Shown here one piece after another: positions 59,690 through 63,474 of a DNA stretch of 64,000 nucleotides. The DNA is taken from sequence record BK061308.1. One strand, written 5' to 3'. Origin of the DNA: Mycobacterium phage prophiFSAT01-1. How positions within the stretch are numbered: the stretch's first letter is position 1; each line of letters begins with the position of its first letter. The position numbers and the translations under genes are program-made. The notes below the pieces were generated by a model. It did not search any database and was not told the DNA's origin. It was given only the letters and a program-made list of their open reading frames with translations.

Positions 59690-59737
59690 AAAAATCAAGG
59701 AACTGAGACCTGCTGTATGGCAATAGGTCTCAGTTCC
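59690..59737 (-). terminator. rho-independent terminator of gene 59730..60083
   Basis: GGAACTGAGACC-14 nt-GGTCTCAGTTCC perfect 12-bp stem. On the minus strand it is followed by TTGATTTTTTCA. It overlaps the stop codon. Confidence 0.65.
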
Positions 59738-60083
59738 GGTCGTCTACCTTAGTGATCGCCTGATCAACGTGAGATACGCGCGCCGGACAGACGTAACTCA
59801 TGCCCATGCGCGTCGCGTTAATGACGCCGTTGCTGCCCTTGTCATGATTGAGCGCGACCCACTTGGCCATCTCTTCGGTGCTGTAGTTGCAATGCTCGAC
59901 CGCTTGGTCATAGAGCGCATCGAAGCGGAAGTCACCATTTGGGTAGGCGCGTCTGAATTCAGTGCCCCAGGCCTGCTGGTTGACCTCGGACTTCGTTTTG
60001 AGTACATCAGGTGCGCTAGCCGGCGCTGAGCACGCCAGGACGCAACCAGCGGTCAGCGCGGCTAGTGCGATCTTGGTGAACAT
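59730..60083 (-). CDS. secreted protein (signal peptide)
   Basis: Signal peptide MFTKIALAALTAGCVLACSAPASA. 117 aa. Confidence 0.5.
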   Translation of the reverse strand: MFTKIALAALTAGCVLACSAPASAPDVLKTKSEVNQQAWGTEFRRAYPNGDFRFDALYDQAVEHCNYSTEEMAKWVALNHDKGSNGVINATRMGMSYVCPARVSHVDQAITKVDDRN

Positions 60084-60122
60084 GGCGTGATGCTAGTACC
60101 AACTAGAAACGCAGGGGAGGGG

Positions 60123-60911
60123 TTATGCCGAACTGCCATCCGGCCATCCCGGATCGGGCGGCAGAGTAGGCGGCGGCTCGGTCCGCATGTATGGATCGGG
60201 CCAGTCTGTCGGGGTTCCGGGCGCGAGTTTGTTGCACACGCGGACTTGTTCATCGCTGACGCGTGGCTGCTCGAACAGCAACCAGGTTCCGAACACGTTG
60301 TCTGTCGGTCGCCTTGCAGGGCCACGCTGCTGTGCAAGGGGTGCGCGCTGCTGTGCCGGTGTTAGCGAGGGATCGGGACCGAAGATATATGCCTGAGTCA
60401 CACCGCCAGGTAAGGAGCCTCGGCTGATATAAGTGCCCTCGCGCTCCGTGAGGGTAGGGCCAATTCGGGTGCCTGCACGCCCCCGGTGAGCAGTGAGACT
60501 GCTGTAGTTACATACGGTGGCGACGTAGCGGTCGCCATCGCGACGAAAGTCCACGACTTCGTAGTAATCAGTGCCGACATAGGGTGAAATGGCAGGATCG
60601 CCGCCGATGTCTAACATGGTGCCCCAGACGTGGTTTTCAGCACGCTCGATACCGGGGTAGCCCTTGTCCGTGAGGGCCGTTCGCCCCTTTTTGTCGGACA
60701 TATAGACACTCGATGACGACTCGGTGATGGCGCGGACGAAGGTGCCTTCGGGGGTCATGAGGTCCAGGCTTGGGTTGGGTATCCACCGGAATGTGTATTG
60801 CTGCTTGTCCTCGGGTGGAGGTGGTGTGGGTTCCGCGGGCTTGCGGCAGCCGCTTATCGCCGTTAGAAGCAGGAGCGCCGTGAGGGCGCCCCTTATCCGG
60901 TTGGTCGCCAT
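60123..60911 (-). CDS. lipoprotein (LTAISGC lipobox) downstream of the large toxin-like gene
   Basis: Signal peptide plus lipobox cysteine, with a Pro-rich C-terminus. Overlaps the upstream gene's stop by ~19 nt. Confidence 0.5.
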   Translation of the reverse strand: MATNRIRGALTALLLLTAISGCRKPAEPTPPPPEDKQQYTFRWIPNPSLDLMTPEGTFVRAITESSSSVYMSDKKGRTALTDKGYPGIERAENHVWGTMLDIGGDPAISPYVGTDYYEVVDFRRDGDRYVATVCNYSSLTAHRGRAGTRIGPTLTEREGTYISRGSLPGGVTQAYIFGPDPSLTPAQQRAPLAQQRGPARRPTDNVFGTWLLFEQPRVSDEQVRVCNKLAPGTPTDWPDPYMRTEPPPTLPPDPGWPDGSSA

Positions 60912-63145
60912 TTGCGGTTGGTGGGGTCGGCGCCCTGTTGCTCCTGCGGCTGCCACTGAGTTGGATCAAAGCCGTTATCACGCAGAACATTACCGATTAC
61001 TCGCTCCGCCCCTCGGTCATCTGTTGCGATCTTATAGGGGTCGGCCTGCCCGTTGGTCAGATAGCGGTCGAGGTCCGGGTAGTTCGCGAGGTCCGGGTTG
61101 GACTGGAGCAACCCGTTGAGGATGGCTTTTTGGCTGTCGAGGGTGTTGAAGCCGTATGGGCCGGTGGTGACCATTTTGTTGGCGGCGTCGGCTGGGTTGT
61201 CATTACCTTGGATCGCTTGGTCGACAGCTTCTAAGCCTTCAACAGGGGCAAACGCCTTATCGACGCCGAGCTGTCCGGTGACCCATTCTCCGAGCTTCTT
61301 GGTGGCTGGGTCTGTGTCCTTGGTGTTGAGGGCGTCCATCGCGCCGTCGAGCATGCCGCGCTTGATACGCCCGCCGTCCTCGAATGCGTTGTCCCGCTCT
61401 GCCCCAGGAGGCATCTGGGCGGCGTCGGACAGGTTGTGCGTGTATTCGTTGTAGGCGCCGCCGTTGATGATCTTGGCGGCGTCCTCGTTGCGGTCCAGGT
61501 TGGCCATCAGGTTCTTGGCCTGGTCGGCATCCGGGAGTGCCTTGATCTCCGGGGTGTTGGCGTTGTCGGCGCCGAACAGCTCGGCGACGTGTGAACCTTC
61601 CAGTCGTGCTGTGGTTTTGGCCAGTTCGGGGTTGGCCTCGGCCCACGAGTCTCCGGTGAAGTGCTGGCCTGGTCCCGGCAGGTCCCGTAGCGATTCCTGG
61701 TGTTCGGGGTCAGCCAGATAGTGGGCCTGCTCGTTGGCGACCTGCTGCGCCAGCGGGTTGTTGGGGTCGTCGGCGGCCCATTCCAGGACATCATCGACCT
61801 TGGCGCCTTGATCGCCCCAGTGCTGCTCGTTGAGCGCCCGCAAGAACGAATCCGCACCCGGTGAAGCACTTTCGGGCTCGCGGGCCATCTCGGCGATGTC
61901 CACGTGATCGGCGCTGCCAGCCTGGAACATATCGGCCACCGCAGACTTGAAATCACCGCGTGCATCAGTGGTGATGCCGCTGGTGAAGTCTTTCAAATTG
62001 TCGTTGTGGGTGTTGATCTCGGCGTTGGAGTAGTCCGAGGCTGCGCCGAGCATGGCCTGGGCGGCCTCCGAGCCGTTGAGGTAGCCGGGGGTGACGCCCT
62101 GGAAAATGTTGGCGACATCCTGCATATCGGCGACACCGCGTAGTTCTGTCTGTGGTCCGCCGTAGCCGCGTGCGGCGTTATCGAAGGAGGTTCCCACCCG
62201 GTCGGCGCGGGTGAGTGCTTCGCGCACTCCATCGGGCAGGTTCGCCACGCTGCCCGCGGTGGGGATGAAGTTGCCTCGGGTGGCTTCGGTGACCCCGGCC
62301 TTGTTGTCGATCCCGGAGCGAATGTTCTTGTTGGACACCATCGCCAGTGCGTCCTTGACCGCCGTGCGGTCTTGCGGGTTCTGTATGCCGTTGAGGAACG
62401 CGTTGACCTCGCCGGGCGTCTTGCCGTCCAGCGAGCGGGACAGCTGGTACAGGTACTGCATTTGGTTGGACGGGATGGTTACCGGCTTGCCAGCGGCCAG
62501 CGCGTCGATCTGCTCGGGTGACAGAACGCTGGCCGCACGCACCCGCTTGATCAGCTCAGGATCGACATAGCCGCCTTGCAGCGCTGAGCCATCCGCGTTA
62601 CCGCGCGCGGCATCCAGACCGCCCACCGGGGCCAGCAGGGTATCTAGGTCCATAGCGTCGACCTGGCTGGCCGCCTCCAAATCAGCAGCACCCCACGCGT
62701 CATACATCCGTTGTAGCCGCGCCTGGATATTGGCGGCGTACTCCCTGCCCTTGGCGACCTGTTCCTTGGACGCACCCGGTGGGGCGTCCCATTCCACGGT
62801 CAGGTCATCGGCAATTTTGTAGTGGTCGCCGGTCGCCTGGTCGTGCAGGCTGATACAGGCGTTCTGCTGCTCCAGCGCCCGCGATAGCGAGTCAATGACG
62901 TTGGGGGCACCGTTGAGGATGGCTTGCCCGGCACCGAGAAACACCTTCTCATCGCTGCTGGCGGTCTCGCGTGCCGCATCGGCCGCGGCGCCGTCCCAGT
63001 ACTCGCCGCCGGGACGCTCCACCGCGGTCTTGTAGTCCGCGCCCGTCTGCTGAATCTCAACCCCGGCCACCATCGCCTGACGCATCAGCTCGATATTGGC
63101 CTTCGTCGGCGTCGAGAGCAGCAGTTGATACGACCGCGCGGACAT
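60893..63145 (-). CDS. large WXG100-domain-containing polymorphic-toxin-like protein (750 aa)
   Basis: N-terminal helical WXG motif (GEYWDGAAADA). Long helical middle region and a C-terminal ~150 aa of unknown type. TGATG coupling to the upstream small gene. Confidence 0.55.
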   Translation of the reverse strand: MSARSYQLLLSTPTKANIELMRQAMVAGVEIQQTGADYKTAVERPGGEYWDGAAADAARETASSDEKVFLGAGQAILNGAPNVIDSLSRALEQQNACISLHDQATGDHYKIADDLTVEWDAPPGASKEQVAKGREYAANIQARLQRMYDAWGAADLEAASQVDAMDLDTLLAPVGGLDAARGNADGSALQGGYVDPELIKRVRAASVLSPEQIDALAAGKPVTIPSNQMQYLYQLSRSLDGKTPGEVNAFLNGIQNPQDRTAVKDALAMVSNKNIRSGIDNKAGVTEATRGNFIPTAGSVANLPDGVREALTRADRVGTSFDNAARGYGGPQTELRGVADMQDVANIFQGVTPGYLNGSEAAQAMLGAASDYSNAEINTHNDNLKDFTSGITTDARGDFKSAVADMFQAGSADHVDIAEMAREPESASPGADSFLRALNEQHWGDQGAKVDDVLEWAADDPNNPLAQQVANEQAHYLADPEHQESLRDLPGPGQHFTGDSWAEANPELAKTTARLEGSHVAELFGADNANTPEIKALPDADQAKNLMANLDRNEDAAKIINGGAYNEYTHNLSDAAQMPPGAERDNAFEDGGRIKRGMLDGAMDALNTKDTDPATKKLGEWVTGQLGVDKAFAPVEGLEAVDQAIQGNDNPADAANKMVTTGPYGFNTLDSQKAILNGLLQSNPDLANYPDLDRYLTNGQADPYKIATDDRGAERVIGNVLRDNGFDPTQWQPQEQQGADPTNRKWRPTG

Positions 63146-63474
63146 CAGCGCTCACCCATCGGTACTTCGCGAGTCAGCGCCAATCCCGCTGCCGAGCGGA
63201 TGGTCTGCGTCACGTGTTCTTCGGTGTCCCCGAACTGGGTCACCGTCTGCGCGGACAGGTCAGCCACGGTGTTCAGGCGTGCGGCCAAACTCCGCTGCAT
63301 GTTCGGGATGGACTTGCTCACCAGCTTGCCGATAGCCACCGTCGCCGGGGAACGACCAGACTCACCGCCAGGGTGCGCGGTCGCGGCCTTGGTCAGCTTG
63401 GTCGCCAACCCCTGCAACTCGGGGGACAGTTTCCGCAGCGCCGCAAGGTCGGCCTGCAATTTGTCGTCGGACAT
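63145..63474 (-). CDS. small helical partner protein of the WXG/toxin cassette (109 aa)
   Basis: GGGGGAA ribosome-binding site, helical, translationally coupled to the 750-aa gene. Confidence 0.45.
   Translation of the reverse strand: MSDDKLQADLAALRKLSPELQGLATKLTKAATAHPGGESGRSPATVAIGKLVSKSIPNMQRSLAARLNTVADLSAQTVTQFGDTEEHVTQTIRSAAGLALTREVPMGER

Follow-up and report, generated by a model that had tools for sequence, protein, structure and literature searches.

A putative ESX substrate cassette at the attR end of prophiFSAT01-1: a long EspA-like protein whose tail varies together with a lipoprotein

What the genes beside the attachment site of a mycobacterial prophage deliver, and in which compartment their products act, is the question raised by a cassette at the attR end of prophiFSAT01-1. 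The window is the whole 64,000-nucleotide (nt) stretch of this Mycobacterium phage analysed here (sequence record BK061308.1), and the cassette comprises three genes on the same strand, encoding a small partner of 109 amino acids (aa), a 750-aa protein and a lipoprotein, with a 117-aa gene and then a terminator downstream (Table 1). A sequence-only reading had placed a cassette for type VII (ESX) substrates on the attR side of an M. abscessus-type prophage, and this description holds: over window 35000-59700 the DNA shares 93.7% identity with McProf, an M. chelonae prophage of cluster MabR, and the element is a McProf-like (MabR) prophage of the M. abscessus/chelonae group. Each open reading frame (ORF) has dozens of conserved homologues in the same gene order, and the ORFs are therefore real genes. 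The comparisons below point to a pair of Esp-type proteins and to a C-terminal tail that switches together with the lipoprotein.

The cassette is already published as the toxin-domain-less "second" MabR polymorphic toxin-immunity (PT-Imm) type, and the finding is a re-identification; the published PT-Imm-like cassette consists of these three genes, identically arranged beside the att site, and nothing essential differs. The same type was described in prophiFSAT01-1, prophiFSQJ01-1, prophiFVLQ01-1 and prophiGD79-1 (genes 80-82), with a presumed toxin that carries an N-terminal WXG-100 domain and no identifiable toxin domain, followed by a gene without a known immunity domain (PMC9434293). The same reading, including the missing toxin and immunity domains, is found in PMC9434293, PMC9934374 and PMC10654092. 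Such cassettes have been named PEST systems, for phage-encoded ESX-secreted toxin (PMC10654092), and the organisation seen here matches theirs. For an assignment to the PEST1, PEST2 or PEST3 superfamily, the relevant prophages are not in the supplements, and tblastn with the N-terminal 176 aa found only the same cassette family. The publications on the cassette are silent on the TPR domain, the EspC-like small protein, the two tail/lipoprotein types and the chromosomal relatives (PMC9434293, PMC9934374, PMC10654092). What is added here is the assignment to EspA and EspC, the extracytoplasmic logic, the two types of tail and lipoprotein with their breakpoint, the orphan modules, and relatives on chromosomes and plasmids. 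In prophages of clinical M. abscessus, att-proximal cassettes form the main accessory cargo and have a suspected role in competition, virulence or drug tolerance; how Esp-type substrates leave the cell in a group that lacks ESX-1 is a further question posed by the present cassette.

An EspA-like protein and its small partner

The 750-aa protein matches PF23275 (ESX-1 secretion-associated protein EspA-like, TPR repeats) over residues 204-456 with 162.9 bits and an E-value of 1.5e-47, against a cut-off of 27 bits, and the match spans profile positions 1-234. The protein thus divides into an N-terminal helical hairpin or bundle (residues 1-170), the EspA-like TPR region (204-456) and an acidic, all-alpha C-terminal extension (457-750). 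An AlphaFold2 model is all-alpha throughout (pLDDT 74.9, pTM 0.67) and places a helix at residues 14-43, a WXG loop, a second helix at 53-106, a Y109xxxD113 motif and a third helix at 127-165 before the TPR region, which is followed by the helical C-terminal extension with a disordered insert at 609-665. The segment GEYWDGAAADA, which had been read as a W-x-G motif in a helical hairpin, corresponds to W50-D51-G52, and the model agrees in setting it in the loop between the first two helices. W50 and G52 are invariant in 24/24 homologues and present in 57 of the 58 aligned full-length relatives. Directly after helix 2 follows Y109-K-I-A-D113, whose tyrosine is kept in all 21 Mycobacteroides homologues; across family representatives, [YF] occurs at this motif in 42/50 and [DE] in 40/58.

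The small gene is translationally coupled to the large one by TGATG, as had been seen in the letters: its TGA stop and the ATG of the 750-aa gene share base 63145 (cgcTGATGtcc). Its product matches phrog_18870 (4.5e-27) and has a helix-turn-helix layout, with a turn that reads HPGGESG. The earlier assignment of this protein to the WXG proteins has to be given up: it contains no tryptophan and has no match to WXG100 (PF06013). An FGDTEEH motif is invariant in 20/20 of its homologues, and within it F81-G-D-T-E85 forms an FxxxE, a non-canonical Phe variant, that presumably sits where EspC has YxxxD. The 109-aa protein is best described, from its sequence features, as an EspC/EspF-like (PE-like) helical partner.

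In the known Esp pairs, EspC and EspF carry YxxxD/E and EspA and EspE carry WXG, EspF being a PE-like protein without WXG and EspE being PPE-like (PMC6107294; bioRxiv 2024.07.05.602283). The cassette resembles EspA-EspC and EspE-EspF, ESX-1 substrate pairs of M. tuberculosis and M. marinum, in combining a large, PPE-like WXG protein that contains PF23275 with a PE-like, non-WXG partner of ~100 aa bearing a YxxxD/E-type motif, and in the adjacency and co-translation of the two genes. The gene order, however, is reversed, with the small gene first, and the motif Tyr of EspC/EspF is Phe in the 109-aa protein. The 750-aa protein is about twice as long as EspA and EspE (about 390-420 aa), owing to an extra C-terminal domain of ~295 aa; it lacks a PF18879 match and carries a YxxxD of its own. 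In addition, the cassette has no gene for an EspD/EspH-like (YbaB-like) chaperone, in contrast to the EspA/EspE loci, and contains a cognate lipoprotein gene instead. The 750-aa protein is therefore best described as a long, putative EspA-like relative and not as an EspA/EspE orthologue.

Homologues of the large protein are all full length (707-784 aa), with 37-40% identity in other Mycobacteroides prophages. Those in Mycolicibacterium share ~30% identity, are named EspA/EspE family effectors and carry both PF18879 (EspA_EspE) and PF23275. An exhaustive profile search gave 349 clusters, mostly of 730-840 aa; among 62 sampled representatives, TPR_23 was found in 58, WXG100 in 8, EspA_EspE in 7 and PPE in 3, and PF18879 is present in distant full-length relatives (P0032-P0034 and the protein of locus L010). 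The search for a relative of the 750-aa protein in the PDB found none. Phages Aegeus (OR159668.1) and Baudelaire (ON970615.1), both isolated on M. chelonae, encode at 29635-30741 a gp35 named "WxG100-family domain protein", which is 26% identical to residues 196-562 of the 750-aa protein (the TPR region) and lies in mid-genome and not beside an att site.

The cassette is mobile among replicons. It has 90% DNA identity to genes 103-105 of prophiT37-1, an unrelated MabK prophage whose copy also belongs to the published "second" type. For the 750-aa protein, identity amounts to 94.5% with prophiT37-1 gp104 and to 37-38% with the proteins of FSQJ01-1, FVLQ01-1 and GD79-1; exchange of modules between prophages has already been described (PMC9934374). 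The same three genes also occur on two 31.4-kb M. abscessus plasmids (L049/L050; NZ_CP065277.1 and NZ_CP063321.1, positions 6012-8261), where the large protein is 92.5% identical and the neighbours are ParA-like and AAA genes and a gene for a 995-aa GH19 protein. The presence of the cassette on plasmids as well as prophages therefore indicates that the module moves between the two. In the GenBank record of prophiT37-1 (L001, OQ417969.1), the product of 109 aa is entered as "polymorphic toxin immunity protein" and that of 750 aa as "PE-PPE family type VII secretion target protein"; this annotation is inconsistent with the paper text, which has gene 103 as the toxin, gene 104 as the immunity gene and gene 105 as WXG100.

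The lipoprotein and the polymorphic tail

The lipoprotein had been noticed as overlapping the end of the large gene, and both the overlap and the lipobox (ISGC, Cys22) are real, whereas the listed start had to be revised: the ORF list begins at GTG 60956 (277 aa), and homologues favour ATG 60911, which gives a protein of 262 aa (MATNRIRGALTALLLLTAISGC). With this start the gene shares 19 nt with the large gene, and an overlap of identical length recurs in relatives at 40% identity. An NTF2-like alpha+beta core is predicted for the protein, its Pro-rich C-terminal tail (...TLPPDPGWPDGSSA) is conserved, and no Pfam family match was found. Its family counts 114 homologous clusters, and in Mycobacteroides, Mycolicibacterium, M. 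asiaticum and metagenome-assembled genomes its gene comes after that of the EspA-like protein. At the extreme C-terminus the motif ...LPP[DNS]PGWP[ED]G.. is conserved, and the peptide PPDPGWPDGSSA may be a ligand of the TPR domain. The lipoprotein is a candidate cognate partner, and a candidate immunity protein, of the C-terminus of the large protein.

The last ~65-190 residues of the 750-aa protein are polymorphic and switch together with the type of the downstream lipoprotein, so that the polymorphic-toxin-like character claimed at the outset is borne out for this joint variation of the tail and the following gene. The type A tail pairs with an NTF2-like lipoprotein of 251-262 aa, and the type B tail pairs with a Cys-rich lipoprotein of 137-141 aa; the C-terminal peptide GWP[ED]G is common to both lipoprotein types. 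The gradient along the protein is steep in the homologue P0006, whose identity to the 750-aa protein is 99% over residues 1-120, 95% over 121-203, 98% over 204-456, 86% over 457-608, 70% over 609-665 and 42% over 666-750. In three loci of this kind (L041-L043), DNA similarity ends at window 61080-61091 (~residue 687), just past a conserved LNGLLQSNP motif, and precisely these loci carry the 137-141-aa Cys-rich lipoprotein, whose gene again overlaps the large gene by 19 nt and whose C-terminus likewise bears the GWP[ED]G tail. Downstream of the short (type B) lipoprotein gene, L041 retains at 8522-8809 a 95-aa ORF ending ...LPPNPGWPEGGSA that has 74% DNA identity to window 60309-60210 and is the leftover 3' end of a long lipoprotein gene, which is evidence of cassette displacement by recombination. 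In the comparison with prophiT37-1, the tail (80% identical) and the lipoprotein (75%) are likewise the most diverged parts of a cassette that is otherwise 94-98% identical. Over 55 locus pairs, the identity of the tail covaried most strongly with that of the lipoprotein (rho 0.67), although all regions correlate (0.39-0.65) and phylogeny confounds the comparison.

Stand-alone C-terminal fragments of the large protein form several clusters. One orphan module on the M. abscessus core chromosome (L007, 6249-7732) consists of a 239-aa C-terminal fragment of an EspA-like protein with a lipoprotein gene directly after it; the orphan-module lipoprotein occurs on 432 contigs, its neighbours are a GmrSD restriction gene and small helix-turn-helix genes, and the L007 module is likely a fixed remnant of a mobile element. 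The C-terminal domain also exists without the rest of the protein in other forms. Locus L010, on a Mycolicibacterium chromosome near holB/topA, encodes, downstream of a 748-aa EspA_EspE plus TPR_23 protein, a 328-aa lipoprotein (5758-6744) that is a paralogue of the C-terminal half of the large protein (E 4e-22) and an NTF2-like lipoprotein (7001-7789), and P0240 is a relative of the C-terminal domain with an N-terminal membrane anchor. Because it is found both as a lipoprotein and as a membrane-anchored protein, the C-terminal domain can be regarded as an envelope module in its own right. Upstream in L010 lies a gene for a large membrane protein, which measures 607 aa as an ORF and 585 aa as called in the locus. 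Joint switching, orphan modules and gene remnants, as read from the sequences, are hallmarks of polymorphic toxin/immunity loci.

McProf provides the closest comparison by position. In the same attR-proximal slot it carries gp99, a WXG-100 protein, gp98, with WXG and a Tde-like DNase according to the GenBank annotation, and gp97, with GAD-like and Tdi1_C domains and an immunity family confirmed by Pfam. The slot, the orientation, the order of small, large and downstream genes, and a remote N-terminal similarity are shared; gp98 matches the 750-aa protein only in its N-terminal ~130 aa (28% identity, residues 37-164). The cargo, in contrast, is unrelated: gp98 lacks TPR_23, and gp97 is a cytoplasmic GAD-like/Tdi1 protein, whereas the downstream protein here is a lipoprotein.

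Envelope-acting effector or surface substrate

The reading we lean to, as the foremost possibility rather than as a probable one, is an envelope-acting, ESX-exported effector with lipoprotein immunity, in which a PE/PPE-like heterodimer and a cognate lipoprotein act outside the cytoplasm. For this reading we infer heterodimer formation, the export route, binding of the tail by the lipoprotein, lysogenic expression and, above all, toxicity. Transcription would probably run leftward from the attR side in the lysogen, with tight coupling through TGATG and then through the 19-nt overlap. The 109-aa FxxxE protein would pair with the WXG hairpin at the N-terminus of the 750-aa protein, which bears Y109xxxD113, giving a bundle of four helices, and the pair would be exported via ESX-4 or ESX-3, since the host group lacks ESX-1 and has only ESX-3 and ESX-4 (PMC9308005). 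The cargo would consist of the EspA-type TPR domain and the ~295-aa acidic helical C-terminal domain. The NTF2-like lipoprotein, Sec-exported and lipid-anchored, would recognise the variable C-terminal tail at the outer face of the membrane, where it would either neutralise the effector in the producer (immunity) or dock it, and the presumed targets would be cells without the matching lipoprotein allele. Considering that the partner is an exported lipoprotein and that tail and lipoprotein are exchanged as a unit, any activity would lie in the cell envelope. Firmicute T7SSb (type VIIb secretion) LXG toxins such as TelC, with TipC, are extracytoplasmic effectors with a membrane-anchored or lipoprotein immunity factor; they combine a helical N-terminal T7SS targeting domain with small helical partners, and the enzymatic activity of TelC is known. 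The cassette resembles them in a predicted helical targeting domain, a small helical partner and a putatively envelope-anchored partner, and it differs in having no sequence or fold relation to them, in the other secretion subtype and in the lack of a known activity for the 750-aa protein.

Precedent and locus dynamics help the envelope-acting effector reading: in M. smegmatis, two PEST cassettes that lack recognisable toxin domains proved toxic in the absence of the imm gene (PMC10654092), and PT-Imm loci of other prophages are expressed in lysogens, some of their Imm proteins being lipoproteins (PMC8092301). Several findings weigh against it. No part of the 750-aa protein could be matched to a toxin family or fold, a toxin domain occurs in none of the 62 sampled representatives, and length is constant across the 349 clusters; the large protein had been taken for a toxin and not a structural or tail-fibre protein, and the second half of that claim stands, whereas a toxic C-terminal domain could not be shown, none of the 58 full-length representatives, whose ~750-aa length is conserved, carrying a toxin domain. 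The C-terminal 294 residues are hydrophilic and acidic (grand average of hydropathy -0.85, isoelectric point 4.4), and a hydrophobic hairpin of the pore-former type was not found, the maximum 19-residue hydropathy over the whole 750-aa protein being 0.82. The structural and family assignments have soft points as well: the AlphaFold2 model was built on an alignment of 24 sequences with a pTM of 0.67, the 750-aa protein has no PF18879 match at E <= 1 and no PF06013 match, and the 109-aa protein scores 17 bits with the Pfam EspC family (PF10824), under the 23.5-bit cut-off that its 73%-identical homologue P0171 just exceeds with 23.6 bits. Moreover, the variant tails are mutually homologous alleles with 35-45% identity rather than unrelated domains, and between genera the lipoprotein keeps a higher mean identity than the tail (47% vs 29%), which is unusual for an immunity protein. 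In Mycolicibacterium, the pair sits at a conserved, syntenic position of the chromosome near holB/topA, accompanied by a lipoprotein that is a paralogue of the C-terminal domain, an arrangement that looks like envelope physiology and not warfare. To our knowledge, the functions of EspA and EspE are not toxic. Many of these findings suit a non-toxic EspA/EspE-type surface or secretion-accessory substrate that would stay in the capsule or mycomembrane like M. marinum EspE, with the lipoprotein as a periplasmic anchor, receptor or assembly factor; the prophage would then remodel the lysogen envelope, and the alleles would reflect partner matching or a surface structure that phages or host immunity keep under diversifying selection. 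This is a substantial possibility of second rank. It draws on the EspA-like TPR domain as the strongest similarity and on the EspC-like small partner, on a family that keeps its length and architecture in 349 clusters with a toxin domain nowhere among them, on the holB/topA loci, on the better conservation of the lipoprotein than of the tail, and on the GWP[ED]G peptide, a possible TPR ligand, of both lipoprotein types. It is opposed by the slot, which equals that of the bona fide McProf toxin/immunity cassette, by the joint replacement of tail and lipoprotein at a common breakpoint, by the orphan modules of C-terminal fragment plus lipoprotein and the displaced gene remnants, both typical of polymorphic toxin loci, and by the toxicity of the two related PEST cassettes (PMC10654092). 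A broader version, which we regard as rather doubtful, would count the cassette, as a mobile representative, among the members of a large class of long, non-toxin EspA-like ESX substrates that is so far undescribed and is spread over prophages, plasmids and chromosomes of Mycobacteriaceae. Their allele-specific tail would dock on a cognate envelope lipoprotein, whose GWPEG peptide would maybe be the TPR ligand. If this were true, the cassette would give the first tractable partner and a testable function for the TPR domain of EspA/EspE, and Esp-type substrates would be exported by ESX-3 or ESX-4 in species without ESX-1.

Two further explanations are improbable. A role in prophage defence or superinfection exclusion, in which the envelope is altered or guarded against phage adsorption or injection, or in which perturbation triggers abortive infection, would suit the lysogenically expressed accessory region on the att side, the usual place of mycobacteriophage defence genes; a neighbouring AAA/STAND-like ATPase has a weak IetA match, the chromosomal orphan module adjoins GmrSD, and the PEST authors list viral defence as a possibility (PMC10654092). 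Nothing, however, ties the cassette to a phage-sensing component, no cassette protein matches a PADLOC family, and in other genera the pair also exists as a conserved locus of the chromosome, in contexts that are not lysogenic. It is equally hard to credit a host-directed virulence effector of the CpnT/EsxA type that would act on macrophage membranes or cytosol, with the lipoprotein aiding export or preventing premature activity, even though ESX-4 of M. abscessus replaces ESX-1 in phagosome damage (PMC9308005), EspA/EspE members are virulence-associated ESX-1 substrates (PMC6107294) and prophages and plasmids of clinical M. abscessus are enriched in these cassettes. Relatives of the large protein occur commonly in non-pathogenic, environmental Mycolicibacterium and among metagenome-assembled genomes, and both the allele-specific lipoprotein pairing and the orphan modules suggest that the partner is bacterial and not eukaryotic.

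Several candidate identities were rejected. The pore-former was dropped for want of a hydrophobic segment. A tail-fibre or structural protein was dismissed on the absence of a PHROG structural match, the all-alpha fold, the position of the gene outside the structural module, and the chromosomal and plasmid relatives. The known anti-phage defence families were set aside on the PADLOC result.

Flanking genes, terminator and attachment site

Table 1. Coordinates of the cassette and adjoining features in the window
Feature	Position	Strand	Basis or remark
109-aa gene	63474..63145	minus	ORF, gene order conserved in homologues
750-aa gene	63145..60893	minus	ORF, homologues full length
Lipoprotein gene, 262 aa	60911..60123	minus	ATG start taken from homologues
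117-aa gene, signal/lipobox-like exported protein	60083..59730	minus	ORF
Intrinsic terminator	59694..59737	minus	13-bp perfect stem followed by UUGAUUUUUU
attR common core (attB-18), tRNA-Lys 3' end, cut by the window end	63956..64000	minus	Sequence identity to published core
82-aa ORF, between attR and cassette	63578..63826	minus	ORF list

The signal-peptide protein and its perfect terminator, which had been counted with the cassette, are both present, whereas their membership in it did not stand: the 117-aa gene belongs to the prophage backbone, because it is common to McProf, whose cassette differs. The 117-aa protein is a homologue of McProf gp96 (97% DNA identity together with the backbone) and is 31% identical to prophiT37-1 gp106 (E 2e-14), whose gene lies on the opposite strand. 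A cassette member or a second immunity gene was rejected for it, the gene being kept in McProf with another cassette and lying on the other strand in prophiT37-1. By its relatives it is a recurrent companion of att-proximal cassettes; its homologues adjoin different cassettes and have in common a Cys pair and a GM(S/R)YVCP motif. The terminator overlaps the stop codon of the 117-aa gene, has a folding energy of -27.6 kcal/mol (z = -5.27) and was matched by 0/200 shuffles. It was missed by a simple scan because its loop measures 13 nt.

The cassette lies ~130-480 nt from the attR core, which is within tRNA-Lys (Mab_t5022c) and identical to the published attB-18 core; the same att core was published for prophiFVLQ01-1/attB-18 (PMC9434293). 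ARAGORN found no complete tRNA at the attR end of the window, because the tRNA-Lys gene runs past its edge. A simple promoter scan found nothing upstream of the small gene, the consensus used being one that does not cover mycobacterial promoters. The 82-aa ORF has no match in Pfam, PHROGs, NCBIfam or PADLOC, and its position agrees with that of the function-less last gene of some MabR prophages, such a gp99 being described at the genome end of prophiFSAT01-1 and prophiFSIL01-1 (PMC9434293). On the other side of the cassette, a 525-aa AAA ATPase, a homologue of McProf gp91 encoded at 57304-58881 (minus), has Pfam matches to nSTAND3/nSTAND5 and a weak PADLOC match to IetA (E 1.2e-5, in the Walker region only), and may be a defence gene of the lysogenic accessory region.

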